Assembly: GCA_964498295.1 (NCBI GenBank)
Contig: CAZCGJ010000003.1
Location: forward strand, 1 to 35,560
Reading direction: 5' to 3'
DNA: 35,560 nt
DNA from: Candidatus Woesearchaeota archaeon
Lineage (GTDB): Archaea > Nanobdellota > Nanobdellia > Pacearchaeales > GW2011-AR1
The notes below the pieces were generated by a model. The model ran no database searches and was not told where the DNA came from. It was given only the letters and a program-made list of their open reading frames with translations. Position numbers and translations under genes: made by a program. This document shows, one piece after another, positions 5,047-29,714 of the stretch (the first letter of the stretch is position 1; every line of letters begins with the position of its first letter).

Positions 5047-5568
5047 TTATTTCTTAAAATCTCTCCATATTTGGCTCGTCTGAGGTCCTATTGAATTCTT
5101 ATATTTTCCATTGTATAAAACAATATCTCCAACTGGTTGCCAGAATAGCATTTGACCAACTTTCATTCCAGGATAAACTTTCAAACGATGAATAGATTGT
5201 AACTCCAAAGTCCATTGTTTCTTAAAACCAATATCGCCTAAACCAGAATTAAGATAAATATAAAGTCCAAGTCTCCCAACAGAACTTCTCGCTTGCATAG
5301 TAGGTGCATAAAAATCAGAACCCATCTCTTCAATTGTATGGCCCAAATATAACCTATTTGGCTCTAAAATAAAACCCTCTTCAGGAATTATAATTTCTTC
5401 AAATTCATTTTCAATAGCAGAATCTAATAAATCACTCTTGTAAACTTTCAGCTTATCTCCTAATCTAAAATTATAACTATTAGGATTTAAATTTTCTTCA
5501 ATAAACGGAGAAATATGAATTCTTCCAAGATTCACCTGCCTTTTAATTTCCGATCCCGTCAGTATCAT
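5047..5568 (-). CDS. dcd: dCTP deaminase family protein (trimeric dUTPase superfamily)
   Basis: MILTGSEI..NPNSYNFRLG, ARSSVGRLG, GDIGF..WTLEL (catalytic Glu), YPGMKVGQ, YNGKY. Confidence 0.88.
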   Translation of the reverse strand: MILTGSEIKRQVNLGRIHISPFIEENLNPNSYNFRLGDKLKVYKSDLLDSAIENEFEEIIIPEEGFILEPNRLYLGHTIEEMGSDFYAPTMQARSSVGRLGLYIYLNSGLGDIGFKKQWTLELQSIHRLKVYPGMKVGQMLFWQPVGDIVLYNGKYKNSIGPQTSQIWRDFKK

Positions 5569-6283
5569 TTGAATCCCAAGTCAAGTTTAATTTTCCATCA
5601 GCATGAAGAATAGGATTTGTATTTTCACAACTACAAGAACGAGTTTCAAACTCAACATCCAAACCATTAATTTTTAATTTAGGATTTGGAGATAAAACAG
5701 GATCTTGGAAAAAATGTTTAATAATAGGAACTATAGAAACAGTATTTTTAGAAACTTCTGGAGAATAACTAACATCATCAAATAATTGTCTAAAAACTAC
5801 TTTTTGTGCTTTACCTTTTGCCCAAGAAATATAATTTTCAACTTCTTGCACAGAATCAACACTGCCCTTAAATAAAACAGCAGAGAATTTTATATTTAGC
5901 CCGCGAGAAAATAGATCGCCAGAGTAATCGACACCCATAATTTCCTTATTTTTCCCAGAATTATAATGAGCCCTAGAGATACAAAGAGGATCAAGTTTTC
6001 TCAATACCCCATCCGATAGCAAACCTACAACAGAACCATTTGTGTACATTTGAGTTCTTGTTTTACTTGCACACAAGTCTATTATTTTGTCTATTTCAGG
6101 ATGCAAGGTAGGTTCTCCACCACCACTAATTTCTATCCCGTCCAAAGAACCTATATCCTTCAAACACTTTTCCAACCCATCAATAGATAAAAAAGATTTT
6201 CCTAAATTACGAAATTGATTAACACAATAAGGACAAGCAGCATTACATGCAGACTCAACAGGAAGAACATATAATTTAACCAT
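5543..6283 (-). CDS. Radical SAM protein of unknown function
   Basis: CNAACPYC, SGGGEPTLH, YTNGS, ISRAHY. Start moved to ATG 6283, which has a GGAGG Shine-Dalgarno-like motif. Confidence 0.85.
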   Translation of the reverse strand: MVKLYVLPVESACNAACPYCVNQFRNLGKSFLSIDGLEKCLKDIGSLDGIEISGGGEPTLHPEIDKIIDLCASKTRTQMYTNGSVVGLLSDGVLRKLDPLCISRAHYNSGKNKEIMGVDYSGDLFSRGLNIKFSAVLFKGSVDSVQEVENYISWAKGKAQKVVFRQLFDDVSYSPEVSKNTVSIVPIIKHFFQDPVLSPNPKLKINGLDVEFETRSCSCENTNPILHADGKLNLTWDSNDTDGIGN

Positions 6284-6764
6284 TAACCCTCCGCAAAACA
6301 TCTGCAACTAGATCATCAAGTTCTTTGTATGATGCAGAAGAGTATAGAATATGAGAAACTGTTTGTGATTTTTCTAAAAATAATTTTCTAGCTAATGCCA
6401 ATTCATTTTCCTTTATTTGTTGAGAAAAATTTCTTGCACGATAACGATTTATAAGCGTTTCTTCAGAAGGCAAAGCAAAAATAATAAGACCCTCATTTTG
6501 TAAATAAAAATTCAAAAACTCAAATTCTTCTTTTGAAAATGGATTTCCGTCCCTCCACATTTGACCATAAACAGATTCTGAAAAATGGCCTCTGTCAAAT
6601 ACAATATTTTCAGCAGAACAATATTCTTTTATATATCTTTGAAATTGATTGCCATCTCGATGATGTAATGATTTTGCATCCCACCTTAGTACATTTTTTA
6701 TTCTGTCTAAGGCAGTACTCTTGCCCGAGCAATCAGGGCCTTCTATTAGTATTCTTTTTATCAT
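6276..6764 (-). CDS. Thymidylate-kinase-like P-loop (d)NMP kinase
   Basis: IEGPDCSGKST and VFDRGHFSESVYG; GAGGTGA SD-like motif upstream. Confidence 0.8.
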   Translation of the reverse strand: MIKRILIEGPDCSGKSTALDRIKNVLRWDAKSLHHRDGNQFQRYIKEYCSAENIVFDRGHFSESVYGQMWRDGNPFSKEEFEFLNFYLQNEGLIIFALPSEETLINRYRARNFSQQIKENELALARKLFLEKSQTVSHILYSSASYKELDDLVADVLRRVNG

Positions 6765-6767
6765 TTT

Positions 6768-7427
6768 TCACCTCTTTAATTCTGAAACAATTTGTGCATA
6801 ATCTTTCTTTATTTTTGGATAATTTTGCAACCTTAGACTTTGAATACTCTTGCCAATTCTATCTTTTGCACCTTCAATTTCTACAAAATATTTACCATAA
6901 AGATTATCCAGACACACAGTACATCCATTATAGTCAAAAGAAGCTCTTTGTTTTTCATATACAATCGCACCAATAGCACCAGTACTTAAAACATCATTAA
7001 AAAAATGTGCCGGAAGTTCACATTCAGCTTCAGGTCTTTCGTTATATTCTCCAGGAAGTCTTTTTCCCTTTATAGTTAAGGTAACATTTCCTTGTTCCCT
7101 TCTAAACCTCACAAAACTTTCTCCAGTTCGATAAATAATATTTTCTTGCCTCTCCCAAGGAGTGCGTTTCCAAGAACGCCCCAGTTCCTTTTCAAGCCGA
7201 CAAATAACATCTTCATTTACTCTTAATTTTACTTCCGTTTCAATCGGAACTTCTTTTCCTTTTTTCTTATCTTCTTCCTCTTTTTCTCTTCTTTCTAATT
7301 TTCCAGCATGCACACCATAACAATCAGGATTTCCATTTTCATCTCGTCTAACTTTATGACCGTATTTCTCGCAAAGAGAAACATATTCATCCATATCATC
7401 ATTAATTGCACTAATTATATCAGTCAT
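6768..7427 (-). CDS. CYTH (triphosphate tunnel metalloenzyme) protein with about 60-aa N-terminal extension
   Basis: ETEVK (ExExK), VRFRRE, LTIKG, RPEAE, YEKQR, CLD...FVEIE, YAQ. Confidence 0.85.
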   Translation of the reverse strand: MTDIISAINDDMDEYVSLCEKYGHKVRRDENGNPDCYGVHAGKLERREKEEEDKKKGKEVPIETEVKLRVNEDVICRLEKELGRSWKRTPWERQENIIYRTGESFVRFRREQGNVTLTIKGKRLPGEYNERPEAECELPAHFFNDVLSTGAIGAIVYEKQRASFDYNGCTVCLDNLYGKYFVEIEGAKDRIGKSIQSLRLQNYPKIKKDYAQIVSELKR

Positions 7428-7966
7428 ACTACTTTCTCCACTAATTTAACAAAATAATTAACTCTGTCTTGAGGTGCCATTACGGGAACTATCACAGGTT
7501 TATAACCGAAGGATTTGTATGCATCGAAAATAGCTTGGTGAATTCTTCTCGCCTCTTCTGGATTTTCCTTTCTAGAATCATCTTTATGATAAACTGGAAT
7601 AGGATCAAGAACAAATACTGCATCATATCTTCCAGTACCAAAATCCATAATAATTTCAGGAGTAGGAATTTTTCCATTTATTGAATAACCATGTCCGTCA
7701 ACTATACCTCTATCGCAGAATAAAAGAGAATCACTAAATGAATGTTCAAGATCTAATATTCGTCTAGCAACACTTTCCTGGAAACCTTGCAAATCCATCC
7801 AAGGAACGCAATTTGAACCTCTACATTGCTCTTCTTCAATTACCATTCTTGCAGCTTCTGGAATTGCAGTATATGATTGTGCAGATAAATTATTTAACAA
7901 TGTTGTTTTTCCACAGCAAGGTCCGCCCGTTATTGCTATTCTTTTAATATCCGTTCTCATACACAT
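7424..7966 (-). CDS. AAA_28 / NadR-type P-loop nucleoside/nucleotide kinase-like ATPase
   Basis: IAITGGPCCGKTT, PEAARMVI, FCDRGIVD, YDAVF..DDSRKE. Start 7966 or 7960; the ORF-track start at 8014 overlaps the promoter region. Confidence 0.82.
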   Translation of the reverse strand: MCMRTDIKRIAITGGPCCGKTTLLNNLSAQSYTAIPEAARMVIEEEQCRGSNCVPWMDLQGFQESVARRILDLEHSFSDSLLFCDRGIVDGHGYSINGKIPTPEIIMDFGTGRYDAVFVLDPIPVYHKDDSRKENPEEARRIHQAIFDAYKSFGYKPVIVPVMAPQDRVNYFVKLVEKVV

Positions 7967-8057
7967 ACATAGACTTGTATTTTTATTACATTTATCTGTA
8001 CCAAAGCTGTCCATAGTGTTGCATAAAGCTTAAATATACAATTTACTGAAATAAAAT

Positions 8058-20826: not shown

Positions 20827-22590
20827 ATGGAAGGAATAAAAGAAGAGGTTACGGGACAAATTCAAGATGGACAACTTTTGCCAGGATTTAGTGGAATAGG
20901 TTCTTTCAGAGGAAGAAGATTTGCAGACCTTTCAGCAGATGAACAAACAATAACTTCTTATTTTTTTACAAATCCTGATTCAAACGTTTATGCAGCAAGT
21001 GATGCACTACCTAATGAATTATGGGCACAAGCAATGGGTCAATATGCAAGAAGTAATTTAACAGCCAAAGAAAGATTAATTCAGTTATTTAATGACATGC
21101 CGAAAAAAAATCCACAAGCAAAATCATTAGGAGAAATTGCCACTACAATAAGAAGCGGAAGAGAAGTAGAACATGCATTAAAACAGTATATAAAAATGGC
21201 AGGAGAGTTCATTGAAGAATGGGGAATAAACTATGGACATGCCTCACTAAGAGATTCCGCACCAATAAGAATATGTTTTGAAGGAGTAAGTCAAAGAGCA
21301 ACCAAATTTTTAGAATCTGCAAGAGAAGGCGCTTACCAAGAACAATCAACCAGAGCACTTCCATTTAATCTAACGAATATGGCAATTCCATTCGAAGTAA
21401 GAGGAACTAAATTTGAAGATAGATTCAAAGTAGTAGGAGCAAATCTTGTTGCATTATATGAAGAAGTAAGAGAAAGAGCAACAAACTATCTAAACTCAAC
21501 TTATGCCGAATTAAGAGTAGATGCAGACAAAAAATTACAAGAAGCAACTGGAGATCCAACAAAAAAATTATCTGACAGAGAATGGAATAAAGCAGTAGGT
21601 GACAAAGCATTTGATATTGCAAGATCGCTTATTCCTCAAAATTTTACAACATCTTTAGGTATGACTCTTAATGCAAGAAGATTCCAAGACCAGCTAACAG
21701 AATGGCAATCATCAGAACTAGCAGAAGTTCGACTTTTAGGAAAAGCAGCACAGATAGAAGTCATGAAACTATCTCCTTCTTTAATGAAGTATGGAAATCC
21801 AAGCGAATTTTATGCAGACCTGCCCCAAAGAGGAAGAGCACTTTCTGAAGATTATGCTCCTGCAAAAAACAGCGCATATCAAAATCAAGAAGTTAGATCA
21901 GTTTTGATTTCTGCAACAGAAGGATTAGAAGATTTAGTTCTTGCAAGTATTTTATTAAAAGAAGATGAAAGCGGAGCTCCCTTTTCAGAACTAGTTAAAT
22001 CAGTAAAAAAGCTGAGTACTGAAGAAAGAAGAAGGATTGCTGAAAGTCAATACAAAGGTAAAAAATCTTTTGAAATAAATTCAAAAACAACAGAAGTTGG
22101 AAGTTTTACATTTGAAAGAACATATGATATTGGAGGATACCGAGATTTACAAAGACAAAGAGGAGACAGGCAACAAACCTCACCATATAGCACTAATATC
22201 GGATTTCATATGCCTGAAGAGATTTTTGAACTAGGAGAGGATCTACCACCAAGATATTTTAAAGCAATGGAAGAAGTTCGAAAACTCCATGATGATTTAA
22301 AGGGAGAAGGATTACACTCTGCAGCACAATATGCTCCCGTAATGGCAAATCTAATAACGCACGTAGTTACTTTAGATCCAAATCAATTATTCTATCAGGC
22401 AAAATTAAGAGCACAGGCAGCAGGTGCAGATTCCTATAGAACAATTGCATTGCAAGAAATACAACAAGGTCTTGCTAAAATGCCAGCATTTAACGGACTA
22501 ATAGAGTATGACGGCACTTTTTACTATCCATTGAACAGATTACCAGAAGCAGTCAACGGAATAATAAAAAAAGCACAGGAGAAAAAATAA
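20827..22590 (+). CDS. thyX: Tandem-domain flavin-dependent thymidylate synthase (ThyX-like)
   Basis: YGHASL, EGVSQRA, YQEQSTR, AFDIARSLIP..TSLGMTLNAR, YRDLQRQR, YAPVM, KLRAQ; immediately upstream of tmk. Confidence 0.78.
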   Translation: MEGIKEEVTGQIQDGQLLPGFSGIGSFRGRRFADLSADEQTITSYFFTNPDSNVYAASDALPNELWAQAMGQYARSNLTAKERLIQLFNDMPKKNPQAKSLGEIATTIRSGREVEHALKQYIKMAGEFIEEWGINYGHASLRDSAPIRICFEGVSQRATKFLESAREGAYQEQSTRALPFNLTNMAIPFEVRGTKFEDRFKVVGANLVALYEEVRERATNYLNSTYAELRVDADKKLQEATGDPTKKLSDREWNKAVGDKAFDIARSLIPQNFTTSLGMTLNARRFQDQLTEWQSSELAEVRLLGKAAQIEVMKLSPSLMKYGNPSEFYADLPQRGRALSEDYAPAKNSAYQNQEVRSVLISATEGLEDLVLASILLKEDESGAPFSELVKSVKKLSTEERRRIAESQYKGKKSFEINSKTTEVGSFTFERTYDIGGYRDLQRQRGDRQQTSPYSTNIGFHMPEEIFELGEDLPPRYFKAMEEVRKLHDDLKGEGLHSAAQYAPVMANLITHVVTLDPNQLFYQAKLRAQAAGADSYRTIALQEIQQGLAKMPAFNGLIEYDGTFYYPLNRLPEAVNGIIKKAQEKK

Positions 22591-23305: not shown

Positions 23306-23353
23306 ACACAACGTATAGTGTTTTAGGTTATAGAAAACCACAATATATTGTGT
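23306..23353 (+). promoter_or_regulatory. Tandem NrdR boxes
   Basis: ACACAACGTATAGTGT (23306-23321) and CCACAATATATTGTGT (23338-23353) match acaCwAtATaTwGtgt at 14/16 and 15/16; 32-bp spacing; TATA box TTTAAATA at 23272. Confidence 0.85.
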
Positions 23354-23379
23354 CGACGAGCAATCGTCGAAAACTCAAA

Positions 23380-23823
23380 ATGCAATGCCCTTACTGTCAA
23401 AACGAGGAAACGAAAGTTAACGACAAGAGAGATAGTGAAGGAATGACAAGAAGAAGACGTGAATGTCTAAAATGTGAAAAAAGATTCACAACTTATGAAA
23501 GAGTTGAAATGGATCTAAGTGTCATAAAAAAAGATGGAAGACGTGAAAAATTTAATCCCGAAAAAATAAATCACGGCTTAAACAAAGCATTTGAAAAAAG
23601 ACCATTCACTTCAGAACAAATTGAAGAAATCGCAAGTGAAATTGAAGCAAAAATATACAGAACAGCAAAAGACAAAGATATCACAACCGCAAAAGTCGGT
23701 GAGATTATCATGGACAAGCTGAAGAAAACAGACAAGATCGCATACATCAGATTCGCGAGTGTTTACAGAGAATTCGCAGATATTGATGATTTCAAAAAAG
23801 AATTACAGGATTTAAAAAAATAA
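23380..23823 (+). CDS. nrdR: Transcriptional repressor NrdR
   Basis: MQCPYC..TKVNDKR..RRRRECLKCEKRFTTYER Zn ribbon plus ATP cone, AYIRFASVYREF. Start is ATG 23380, not GTG 23350, which lies inside the operator. Confidence 0.95.
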   Translation: MQCPYCQNEETKVNDKRDSEGMTRRRRECLKCEKRFTTYERVEMDLSVIKKDGRREKFNPEKINHGLNKAFEKRPFTSEQIEEIASEIEAKIYRTAKDKDITTAKVGEIIMDKLKKTDKIAYIRFASVYREFADIDDFKKELQDLKK

Positions 23824-26075: not shown

Positions 26076-26642
26076 ATGAAAGAAATTGAAGTACTTGTCC
26101 AAGTTTTAGATTCTAAAGAAAAAACCCTTAATGTATTGAGTAAATTCAAATTGATAGGAATAAAAGAAACAAAAGACATATATTTTTTTGATGAGTCTAA
26201 AGATACTCTTCAAATGAAAAAAGAAAAATATCCTACTAAGTGGTTTAGAATTAGAAAAAAAGGAGAAAAAAATTATATAACATATAAAGAAGACATTTTT
26301 GACGGCAAAGGAAATTGGCTTCATTCACACGAGCACGAAACAGAAATAAAAGATTTTGAAGTGATTCATCAAATAATAAAAAAATTAGGATTCAAACAGC
26401 TAATAGAAATAGATAATAAAAAACACATTTATGAAAATGAAGAATACGAAATTGTCTTTGAAGAAGTAGAAAATCTAGGCTATTTCCTAGAAGTTGAAAA
26501 AAGAAATACAACAGAAAAAAGTGATACTGAAAAAATAAGAAAAGAAATTAAAGAATTTCTTAAAAATCTTAATTTGGAAATAAGTGAAGAAGTAGGTATT
26601 GGAAAACCAGAACTGATGTTAAGAAAGATAAAAGTTAAATAA
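26076..26642 (+). CDS. CYTH-family protein (class IV adenylate cyclase/CyaB-like triphosphatase)
   Basis: EIEV, DIYF, WFRIRK, YITYK, EHET, FEEVENLGYFLEVE. Confidence 0.85.
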   Translation: MKEIEVLVQVLDSKEKTLNVLSKFKLIGIKETKDIYFFDESKDTLQMKKEKYPTKWFRIRKKGEKNYITYKEDIFDGKGNWLHSHEHETEIKDFEVIHQIIKKLGFKQLIEIDNKKHIYENEEYEIVFEEVENLGYFLEVEKRNTTEKSDTEKIRKEIKEFLKNLNLEISEEVGIGKPELMLRKIKVK

Positions 26643-26644
26643 AA

Positions 26645-27799
26645 TTAGGAACTCTTTTGAAATCTTTCAGGTAGCTCGTACCCCACTTTAGCACTAACTT
26701 GAAATGCACCGTTACCCAAATCTGCTGCAACATTTGCAGTATGCCAATATTTACCGCAAAGTCGAGGCTTACAAGACTTAATAATTTCTAAACGCATAGG
26801 GATTGCCTGAACATCTTCAATAGGCTTACAACCAGGATTTAAAGTTAAATCCCTCAACCATAAATTTTTACTTTCTTCTCTAGAAACGCTGTCTTGTGAA
26901 TATAATAACATCTGTGCAAGTTGACCAGATAGTAAAATAGAATCTATAGAACTTAAATGAGGCCTACACTCATTCCCGCTTTTTTTTGACCAACTACCGA
27001 GGTAACTTAAATCGGCTTTTGCAGTAAGAATCCCGCTTGCAGGATCAATTTCTATATCATAAATATCATGCTGTGTTTTTCTAAATCCGCTAGAAAAAAA
27101 CCTATCTGAAGAAGGACCTAGAGCATCATCTGCTCGGTCATACCATAATTTACCTCCCTCTTTTTGCTTCGGACCATTTAAAGTAGTACTTACGTCTAAG
27201 CCCAAAAGATTTACTACTTTTGTAATTCTTTCTTCAACAGAACCAGAAACTTCATAAAATGGTAAACTTGTGTTTGCCCAAGTCTCTCTTAGTATTTCAT
27301 CAGCTTTTTGTCTAAATGCTTCTGAAACAGGCCTATGGCCGTCTTGAGGTAAAGGAAACTCGACAGGAAAATGAATAACGTGAGTATAATTTTGTGCAGA
27401 ATACCTTTTTACAACTTCTCCAAAAGCATCGATAGCAAATTTATAACCTTCTCCAAAAATTTCAGAACCTTTACCATTTGCACCTTCTAACATTCTTCCA
27501 TGACCATACGCCCATTCATGAACAGCAGAACCATCAGAAATAAATCCATCTTTAAACTGATTTTCCAATATTCTTCTTTCACCAAATCTAACCATTCCCA
27601 ACTGAACAAGCTCAAACGGAGAACACTGCTCCAGTTTTTTCCCAGGAAAAGTCTCGGGTAAAATATCCCTCATACCCCTAGCAACAGCAGGAGGTAAACC
27701 AGTTAATCTTGAAAGCTCTCGCGTAGCTGTCGTTTTTCCAGTCCCATATGTACCTGAAAGAACTATCTTCTTTCCAGAATTATTATGACCAAATACCAT
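26645..27799 (-). CDS. Fusion: AAA_28-type P-loop NTPase plus AvrD-like (hotdog-fold) domain
   Basis: N-term LSGTYGTGKTT, FISDGSAVHEWAYG, PVEF..DGHRPVSE; C-term DDALGP..RFFSSGF, WSKK..RPHLSSIDS. Start ATG 27799 has TTTATAAA 29 nt upstream. Confidence 0.75.
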   Translation of the reverse strand: MVFGHNNSGKKIVLSGTYGTGKTTATRELSRLTGLPPAVARGMRDILPETFPGKKLEQCSPFELVQLGMVRFGERRILENQFKDGFISDGSAVHEWAYGHGRMLEGANGKGSEIFGEGYKFAIDAFGEVVKRYSAQNYTHVIHFPVEFPLPQDGHRPVSEAFRQKADEILRETWANTSLPFYEVSGSVEERITKVVNLLGLDVSTTLNGPKQKEGGKLWYDRADDALGPSSDRFFSSGFRKTQHDIYDIEIDPASGILTAKADLSYLGSWSKKSGNECRPHLSSIDSILLSGQLAQMLLYSQDSVSREESKNLWLRDLTLNPGCKPIEDVQAIPMRLEIIKSCKPRLCGKYWHTANVAADLGNGAFQVSAKVGYELPERFQKSS

Positions 27800-27917
27800 A
27801 AAAATTAGCATAAAAAAAGGTTTATAAATATTTGCTTTTGTTACTACTTGAAGATTACAATAAAATAGAGCAAAGAAATACACAAATCAATATAAACCTA
27901 TTAGCTTAAAAAACAAT

Positions 27918-28664: not shown

Positions 28665-29714
28665 ATGATTATTGGACTAACAGGTACAAACGCAGCAGGC
28701 AAGGGTACAGTTGTTGACTTTCTTAAAGAAAAAGGTTTTGAGCACTACACTGCAAGAGGTTTTTTAACTAAAGAATTAGAGAAATCGAATAGACCCGTAG
28801 ATAGAGCAAACATGCAAGATCTTGCAAATGAATTAAGAGCGCAACACGGACCTGCATATATTGTTGAACAATTATATGAACAAGCAAGAAATTCAAAAAA
28901 TGCAGTAATTGAAAGCATTAGATGCCCTGGAGAAATAGTCTCGCTTAGACAAAAACCAGGATTCTTATTATTTGGAGTTGATGCAGAACCATTAACAAGG
29001 TATCAAAGAGCTATCGCAAGAGCAAGTGAAACAGACAGAGAAATGACCTATGCACAATTCATTGCAGATGAACAAAAAGAAAAAGATAACAAAGAACCAT
29101 TCAAACAGAATTTAACAAAATGTTTAGAAGAAGCAGATGTATTTTTCTTAAATGAAGGCACTCCGAAAGAACTTGCAGAAAAAATTGCGAAAAATACTTC
29201 TTTCGATGCACAAGGATATTTAACAAGAAGGCCGACCTGGGACGAAATATTCATGAATGAAACATATACTTGGGCAGCACGTTCAACATGTCTAAGAAGA
29301 AAAGTTGGTGCGGTAATTACAACGCCAGGACATGAAATGGTATCTCAAGGCTATAATGGTTCCCCCAGAGGAACACCTAATTGTGTAGACTTAGGTTCAT
29401 GTGAAAGACAGAAAATGGGCGTTCCATCTGGACAAAGATTAGAAACATGCAGAGCAGTTCATGCAGAACCGAATGCAATAGTTAATGCAGGTAGACAAGG
29501 TAAAAATGTTCAAGGAGATATTTTATATTGCACCACCTTCCCCTGCCAAATCTGTGCAGGAATTATTGTAAATTCAGGACTCAACGAAGTAATTTATGAA
29601 GCAGACTATCCAAATGATCAAGCAAAACAAACATTCTTGCAAGCAGGAATAAAAACAAGAAGATTTGAAGGCGTTCGTTCACCTGCATTTGATAAATTGT
29701 TTAGACAAAAATGA
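28665..29714 (+). CDS. Fusion: P-loop NMP/dephospho-CoA-kinase-like domain plus dCMP deaminase
   Basis: IIGLTGTNAAGKGT..ESIRCPGE; RPTWDE.FM, RSTCLRRKVGA, GYNG, HAEPNAI, PCQIC. Confidence 0.9.
   Translation: MIIGLTGTNAAGKGTVVDFLKEKGFEHYTARGFLTKELEKSNRPVDRANMQDLANELRAQHGPAYIVEQLYEQARNSKNAVIESIRCPGEIVSLRQKPGFLLFGVDAEPLTRYQRAIARASETDREMTYAQFIADEQKEKDNKEPFKQNLTKCLEEADVFFLNEGTPKELAEKIAKNTSFDAQGYLTRRPTWDEIFMNETYTWAARSTCLRRKVGAVITTPGHEMVSQGYNGSPRGTPNCVDLGSCERQKMGVPSGQRLETCRAVHAEPNAIVNAGRQGKNVQGDILYCTTFPCQICAGIIVNSGLNEVIYEADYPNDQAKQTFLQAGIKTRRFEGVRSPAFDKLFRQK

Follow-up and report, generated by a model that had tools for sequence, protein, structure and literature searches.

An archaeal fusion of an AAA_28 P-loop kinase with a single-hotdog AvrD domain

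The DNA analysed here, referred to as the window, is the whole stretch of 35,560 nucleotides at positions 1 to 35,560 of contig CAZCGJ010000003.1, from a Candidatus Woesearchaeota archaeon (assembly GCA_964498295.1; G000). The window carries TFS/RPB9 and HTH_10 genes, in keeping with the archaeal origin assigned to it in an earlier reading made from the sequence alone (the sequence-only reading). Genomes of this phylum measure 0.5-1.6 Mb; the source assembly comprises 802 kb, with a completeness estimate of 53%. The gene of interest lies on the minus strand and encodes a P-loop kinase domain followed by about half of an AvrD domain. Its features are as follows:

26645..27799, minus strand: whole coding sequence of the kinase and mini-AvrD fusion, 384 aa plus stop (open reading frame list, translation, Pfam)
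27227..27769, minus strand: AAA_28 P-loop kinase domain, MmyX/MmyK-like, aa 11-191 (PF13521 over the full profile)
27731..27754, minus strand: Walker A sequence GTYGTGKT, aa 16-23 (sequence; largely conserved in alignment A1)
27311..27343, minus strand: DGHRPVSEAFR, aa 153-163, invariant Arg-bearing segment (alignment of 14 fused proteins)
26648..27157, minus strand: mini-AvrD domain, a single hotdog unit, aa 215-384 (PF05655 stretches, DSSP, Foldseek)
26894..26950, minus strand: central hotdog helix, aa 284-302, where similarity switches from repeat 1 to repeat 2 (half-HMM scores)

The minus-strand frame is open from 26645 to 27883 and specifies 412 aa when begun at a GTG codon. Initiation at the ATG at 27799 gives 384 aa and agrees with the N-termini of the homologues in alignment A1. 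The database version of the protein (P0002) is 388 aa long, its four additional residues implying a start at an ATG 12 nt upstream. The G+C content at third codon positions (GC3) is 0.21; since this value falls among those of nine neighbours (0.16-0.39), the fusion gene looks native. Sequencing runs with matching DNA are freshwater or lake metagenomes, and no RNA run is listed among them. A CYTH-domain gene (26076-26642, plus strand) converges on the fusion gene, leaving a gap of 2 bp to the latter's stop codon (26645-26647, minus strand).

The two domains that the sequence-only reading had seen in the 384-aa product were both recovered in a Pfam scan. AvrD (PF05655) matched with an E-value of 1e-23 and 84.7 bits (cut-off 25), while AAA_28 (PF13521) matched residues 11-191 over its whole profile with E=1.3e-17 and 64.9 bits (cut-off 27). 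The motifs through which AvrD had been recognised are found at aa 224-229 (DDALGP), 233-239 (RFFSSGF), 270-273 (WSKK) and 279-286 (RPHLSSID). No NCBIfam family matches the fusion protein at E<=1, so it has no equivalog. A sequence search of the PDB returned weak TsaE P-loop matches alone, with no AvrD relative. Forty columns are invariant across the 14 fused proteins of alignment A1, which share 43-69% identity. On sequence grounds, the domain matches and the conservation are far beyond chance.

In the kinase domain, the HLPxEF..DGHRPV.E.FR signature of the MmyX/MmyK-type subfamily occupies aa 143-163. Ten of its residues (D153, G154, H155, R156, P157, V158, S159, E160, F162 and R163) are invariant in the 14 fused proteins, and the DGHRPVSEAFR segment, possibly a LID, is kept in bacterial stand-alone kinases as well. 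A model of the fusion (AlphaFold2, 14 sequences; mean pLDDT 87.1, pTM 0.79) comprises a Rossmann-like kinase domain and then a hotdog domain. Foldseek matched the N-terminal domain to deoxyadenosine kinases (8puu, 2jas), the NadR kinase domain (8x7f, 6gyf), thymidylate kinases and AbmG; solved kinases share 13-18% structure-based identity with it.

The AvrD match falls into two pieces, covering profile positions 3-80 (nt 26918-27142, 54.2 bits) and 240-317 (nt 26717-26947, 38.3 bits). About 160 central positions of the 331-position profile are missing from the fusion, as seen in a six-frame search of the whole assembly. A profile-free search with the mini domain among 1.84 billion representative proteins gave 630 matches at E<=0.001. 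Nearly all of the best 150 of these, which were inspected, are 320-370 aa long and match in two stretches, as against a domain of about 165 aa in the fusion, so that "about half a normal AvrD", the original description, was accurate. By DSSP, the modelled domain runs in the order two strands, long helix, four strands (strands 242-266, helix 284-302, strands 314-375); it has the long central helix and surrounding antiparallel sheet of a hotdog. A Foldseek search, proposed earlier as a check on this fold, matched single-hotdog proteins: SAV606 (5wsy_A, E 2.4e-5), Rv0098 (3b18, E 5.3e-5) and FabZ (1u1z_A, root-mean-square deviation 3.6, 138 columns). A full-length AvrD is built differently. A comparison model of the Paenibacillus protein (343 aa, alignment of 28; pLDDT 90.4, pTM 0.90) contains two hotdog repeats, with central helices at 69-88 and 234-253, and resembles the double-hotdog thioesterases TesB and FatA and polyketide synthase (PKS) DH structures. 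The fusion belongs to the AvrD family by sequence but does not have the two tandem hotdogs (about 310-370 aa) of the full-length architecture; it is therefore a variant of the family and not a standard member.

The relationship of the single hotdog to the two repeats was analysed with hidden Markov models (HMMs) of half 1 and half 2, built from 67 full-length AvrDs. Each half HMM aligns over the entire mini domain, with scores that are alike (84-121 bits). The picture changes when the mini domains (n=10) are cut at residue 292, in the middle of the central helix. With half 1 the N-part then reaches 54-83 bits, compared with 23-42 for half 2; for the C-part it is half 2 that gives the higher score (44-73 bits, with 10-30 for half 1), in ten cases out of ten for each part. 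The residues that are 100% conserved in the 67 full-length proteins (L, G, R, G, W, S, K and H in half 1; Q, R, W, R and W in half 2) occur in 7-10 of the 10 mini domains. The mini domain consists of the conserved N-part of AvrD repeat 1 and the conserved C-part of repeat 2. Two origins fit these data. Either a deletion ran from the helix of one repeat to the corresponding helix of the other, or a single hotdog is ancestral and, after its duplication, each copy retained one half of the site. The fused kinases are sister to the bacterial kinases, not nested among them, and the three-group comparison of the halves is unrooted.

An architecture search covered 5.8 billion clustered proteins. Thirteen other protein clusters contain the fusion architecture or fragments of it, at 43-69% identity, and two of them carry the automatic name "AvrD [uncultured archaeon]"; the sequence-only reading, which knew of no archaeal example and no kinase fusion, has been overtaken on both counts. 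Among the best 150 of the 630 mini-domain matches, P0014, P0138 and P0157 are fused forms and P0252 (164 aa, on a 7.5-kb contig) is a stand-alone mini form. Four other fused copies (L003, L004, L005 and L006) lie in species-representative genomes; these loci were retrieved with an alignment as the query, whereas a single-protein query of genome contigs retrieved nothing. L003 and L004 come from metagenome-assembled genomes labelled "uncultured archaeon", and L006 from one labelled Methanosarcinales. The L005 copy (7-1158), in a metagenome-assembled genome labelled Candidatus Peribacteria, has TGA at 11 in-frame positions; only translation table 25 (TGA=Gly) leaves the gene intact. Several of these TGAs sit at conserved glycines, and the organism appears to use the SR1/Gracilibacteria code. 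One further fused copy (L083) was found in metagenome contigs.

In a kinase-domain tree of 84 rows (tree 1), one branch with SH-aLRT 99 has all 10 fused rows on the same side; by row count, three of 80 genome loci gave no kinase row, their matches being too short. A second tree of 58 rows (tree 2), for which 31 near-duplicate rows were removed by hand, likewise places its 12 fused rows on one side of a branch (SH-aLRT 97). The trees leave room for a single origin, and the fusion may have arisen once, because the fused rows share one side of a single branch. The fused clade spans both domains of life, comprising archaea and a bacterium of the candidate phyla radiation (CPR), and it is old and maintained. 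A literature search, with subscription journals and supplements outside its scope, returned no description of an archaeal AvrD or of an AvrD-AAA_28 pairing. The fused, halved form of a known enzyme pair is real, conserved and previously undescribed.

These data bear on a reading in which the gene is the decaying remnant of a horizontal transfer, its AvrD part truncated and non-functional. The gene is certainly rare, an AvrD match being present in none of 400 other genomes sampled from the window's phylum (all at least 90% complete), and its AvrD part is of half length. However, the frame is intact, GC3 resembles that of the neighbours and the 13 other clusters share the architecture; 40 columns have stayed invariant over 14 proteins and the fold model is confident. 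What is lost amounts to exactly one hotdog unit, the same throughout the fused clade and in the 164-aa stand-alone form, and the L005 copy has been recoded for its code-25 host. The isolated decaying transfer that the sequence-only reading had named as its own undoing is thus largely refuted, and we regard decay as very improbable.

Bacterial relatives of the kinase domain stand alone and are 40-49% identical to it. The subfamily was surveyed at 80 genome loci and 80 metagenome loci. At 74 of the 80 genome loci, AvrD is present as a full-length gene of its own, on the same strand and no more than 6 kb away; in 38 of these it is immediately upstream. Four more are the fused copies (three read as one open reading frame by table 11, L005 under code 25), and no AvrD is seen at L032 (a 606-nt contig) or L048. 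Among the metagenome loci, 57 of 80 have both genes, one is fused and 22, mostly short contigs, have the kinase only. In bacteria, the kinase subfamily is almost always tied to AvrD. As a rule AvrD comes first and the kinase second. On the Ralstonia solanacearum PSI07 megaplasmid the genes stand as in the fusion: kinase, AvrD (289 aa), HAD. The kinase of L164:5926-8319, which precedes AvrD as in the fusion, nonetheless groups with the bacterial stand-alone kinases in tree 2. Recurrent neighbours are the ketoacyl synthase KAS III (22 loci), Old Yellow Enzyme (OYE), which directly follows the kinase at 17 loci, and transporters of the MFS type (26 loci); MMPL-type exporters and one PKS of the ketosynthase-acyltransferase-acyl carrier protein (KS-AT-ACP)-aminotransferase type were found as well. 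Such neighbours fit the logic of butenolide synthesis. Nocardia loci have a second, weak AAA_28 gene in addition. In the literature, an AvrD gene of Lactococcus lactis is tabulated at a distance of two genes from an "ATP-binding protein", without comment in the available text (PMC5822349), and avrD-like genes are described as rarely singletons in the accessible part of PMC3879358.

A tblastn search against plasmids located the AvrD-kinase pair on Streptomyces anthocyanicus plasmids, including the SCP1-type NZ_CP109276.1. The genes are, in order, flavin reductase, regulators, NADH:flavin oxidoreductase, AvrD family protein, AAA family ATPase, KAS III, ACP, HAD-IB hydrolase, ATP-binding protein and MFS transporter, with a ScbA/BarX, acyl-CoA dehydrogenase and HAD trio nearby. 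By gene order, we take the pair to be MmyD and MmyX/MmyK and the two P-loop genes to be mmyX and mmyK; the record itself carries no gene names. In this methylenomycin-type cluster (L163:14616-18066) the two kinase paralogues are separated by KAS III, ACP and a HAD hydrolase. The archaeal N-terminal domain is 40% identical to one of the two cluster kinases, the ATPase beside the AvrD gene (E 3e-52), and 38% identical to the other (E 1e-44), and the archaeal C-terminal domain aligns to both halves of the cluster's AvrD protein. By its gene content, the S. anthocyanicus region matches the methylenomycin cluster set out in the available text of PMC12593393. The same text reports that deletion of mmyD abolishes all methylenomycin metabolites, and it proposes for AvrD/MmyD a reaction between a beta-ketoacyl thioester and a pentulose to give a butenolide, the chemistry that the sequence-only reading had cited. 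Like the fusion, the methylenomycin system has both families side by side, with a second paralogous ATP-binding protein. Unlike the fusion, it keeps them as separate genes; its AvrD is a double hotdog of 339 aa, and KAS III, ACP, OYE, HAD and MFS genes lie alongside. In the archaeal case one chain holds both domains, the hotdog is single, and those partners are absent from the surroundings.

AvrD of Pseudomonas syringae shares with the mini domain the patterns LG..R.F..G, W.K...PH.S..D and Q..Q...Y..D...R......W.R, with about 31% identity over roughly 120 residues, but differs in being about 311-340 aa long and in having two hotdog repeats. The accessible part of PMC3879358 mentions no kinase partner for AvrD in the P. 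syringae operon and states that avrD alone suffices for syringolide production in E. coli. The best functional analogy comes from the salinipostin pathway of Salinispora, where, as presented in the available portion of the preprint (bioRxiv 10.1101/2020.10.11.335315), the AfsA homologue Spt9 forms a butenolide phosphate, the Spt6 kinase converts the reduced gamma-butyrolactone phosphate to the pyrophosphate in vitro, and natural spt6-9 fusions are reported. There, as is proposed here for the archaeal protein, a butenolide synthase has a dedicated kinase. The families differ, being AfsA (PF03756) and NDK (PF00334), neither of which is among the Pfam matches of the fusion protein at E<=1; the likeness is one of convergent logic, not of membership. 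A 1412-aa metagenomic protein (P0234) was also noted in which a KS-AT-ACP type I PKS-like sequence, recognised by eye, is followed by a full AvrD domain at about residues 1080-1400. It would fit a direct action of AvrD on an ACP-bound beta-ketoacyl chain.

The reading that we prefer, with about even confidence, is that the archaeal gene encodes a functional enzyme with two activities, in which the bacterial module formed by an AvrD/MmyD-type butenolide synthase and an MmyX/MmyK-type AAA_28 kinase has been fused and reduced, and which plausibly acts on a phosphorylated sugar to give a small molecule. Chemistry, dimer, substrates and order of steps are ones that we infer, the two-step scheme by analogy with Spt9/Spt6. 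A keto-sugar or its phosphate would receive an activated beta-keto acyl unit through the hotdog domain, by transfer or condensation, to yield a butenolide-type product. The kinase domain would carry out an ATP-dependent phosphorylation of either the sugar substrate or the product, at a hydroxyl or at an existing phosphate; both acceptors are allowed because the fold is that of nucleoside kinases and nucleoside monophosphate kinases. Two hotdog domains would pair as a homodimer, so rebuilding the double-hotdog active site. A homodimer prediction for two copies of aa 215-384 with alignment A1 returned a median score of 0.37 (mark 0.42; controls 0.00) and counts neither for nor against the dimer.

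Several findings weigh against this proposal. The 802-kb, 53% complete assembly G000 has no match to Thiolase_N, PP-binding/ACP, OYE, RpiA or Rpe. Three other carrier genomes (G401, G402 and G403), which are incomplete or small, lack matches to ACP (PP-binding) or thiolase, while the fourth, G404, has both Thiolase_N and PP-binding. A beta-ketoacyl-ACP or -CoA source of the organism's own was thus not found in G000 or G401-G403, a result weakened by the incompleteness of the genomes; should the absence be real, the substrates would have to differ or come from a host. Nor did the KAS III, OYE and exporter genes that accompany the pair in bacteria turn up around the archaeal copies. No enzyme activity is on record for any member of the kinase subfamily in the accessible portions of the literature, and the available text of PMC12593393 leaves for further study what MmyG, K, Q, X and Y do in the middle of the pathway. 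Finally, no structure defines the catalytic residues of AvrD, and the fold matches are to generic hotdogs.

The same gaps favour a reading in which the fusion acts on butenolide or lactone molecules that are exogenous or made by the host, the kinase phosphorylating them and the hotdog binding or hydrolysing them, for detoxification, quenching or scavenging in an episymbiont. Carrier genomes are small (0.8-1.5 Mb) and mostly without ACP, thiolase and OYE, G000 also has no RpiA or Rpe match, biosynthetic partners are not seen near the archaeal copies, and hotdog folds include many thioesterases. On the other hand, unchanged chemistry is suggested by the universal AvrD residues of both halves, each of them retained (7-10 of 10 mini domains), and the bacterial pair occurs in biosynthetic, not resistance, contexts; we consider such a role unlikely. 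It is likewise with little confidence that we raise a host-directed variant of the synthase proposal, in which ultra-small episymbionts, the DPANN archaea and the code-25 CPR bacterium, would use the fusion as a self-contained, single-polypeptide synthase, turning host-derived beta-ketoacyl thioesters and sugars into a phosphorylated butenolide-type signal or effector that acts on the host. If true, archaea would for the first time be credited with butenolide or gamma-butyrolactone-like chemistry, and the protein behind it would be a minimal, homodimeric version of the AvrD double hotdog, ancestor-like in form. A defence-system reading was dropped: PADLOC matched no defence-system family to the fusion or to the Paenibacillus and Vibrio pairs, one weak P-loop LeoA match excepted.

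The AvrD and AAA_28 families and the methylenomycin-type gene pair were known already, and the main interest of the fusion lies in its value as a Rosetta-stone clue and as a subject for structure determination. Plant-defence elicitors and an antibiotic owe the first step of their synthesis to AvrD/MmyD enzymes, and a sequence search of the PDB finds no solved structure in the family. Under the Rosetta-stone argument, the kinase and the AvrD enzyme would act on the same molecule, and this yields a definite hypothesis for the steps that MmyX and MmyK take in making methylenomycin. The form with one hotdog reveals which halves of the double hotdog bear the conserved residues and offers a compact target for structural and mechanistic work. 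Its presence in archaeal and bacterial episymbionts that seemingly do without the usual precursors hints at small-molecule chemistry that is host-fed or host-aimed.

The genes around the fusion in the window are concerned with nucleotide metabolism (nrdD, nrdG, tmk, thyX, dCMP deaminase and dut), and the sequence-only reading had built on this setting. In three other carriers (L003, L004 and L006), no synteny was found around the fused gene, which is all that they have in common with the window; their neighbours, judged from open reading frame translations without a Pfam scan, resemble ribosomal proteins, a tRNA synthetase and similar housekeeping genes. The tie to a nucleotide context was not upheld.

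The local context is nonetheless what a nucleoside or nucleotide salvage kinase, serving the adjoining genes and carrying the hotdog as a regulatory or ligand-binding appendage, would lead one to expect, all local neighbours being nucleotide-metabolism genes. The nearest folds are those of deoxynucleoside kinases, NadR and thymidylate kinases, and JGI labels some relatives "nicotinamide riboside kinase". Still, that context is not conserved in L003, L004 and L006, the kinase subfamily travels with AvrD in clusters of secondary-metabolite appearance, and an NCBIfam equivalog is wanting, with 13-18% structure-based identity to solved kinases. We hold a salvage role to be quite improbable. The NadR kinase domain and the deoxynucleoside kinases have the P-loop kinase fold and the AAA_28 label in common with the fusion, but at a structure-based identity of 14-17%, and the fusion's subfamily keeps company with AvrD, not with NAD or dNTP genes. 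An identity as a NadR-type ribosylnicotinamide kinase was rejected on the lack of an NCBIfam match at E<=1, a likeness at fold level only (14-16% identity) and the company of AvrD.

Elsewhere in the window, a five-gene operon (5047-8014, minus strand) encodes a dCTP deaminase-like protein, a radical SAM protein, a weakly thymidylate-kinase-like protein, a 219-aa protein without assignment and a strong AAA_28 protein of 196 aa. The sequence-only reading had linked the fusion to this "dcd operon" (given as 5047-7966). The 196-aa protein is only distantly related to the kinase domain of the fusion, its homologues are present in 15 of 150 other genomes of the phylum, and its gene was not found in two of the four other fusion carriers. 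A functional link was rejected on the differing spread in the phylum (15/150 for the operon gene versus 0/400 for AvrD) and the lack of synteny.

Three further genes of the window were noted. An NrdR-like repressor with a Zn ribbon and an ATP-cone (23350-23823, plus strand) lies directly upstream of the archaeal nrdD; NrdR is usually regarded as bacterial. A 587-aa protein (20827-22590, plus strand) has a ThyX (Thy1) domain confined to residues 118-317, ordinary ThyX being much shorter than 587 aa. Lastly, the gene at 28665-29714 (plus strand) encodes an N-terminal AAA_18 P-loop kinase-like domain followed by a dCMP/cytidine deaminase domain at aa 191-312, and is a second kinase fusion in the nucleotide gene cluster.

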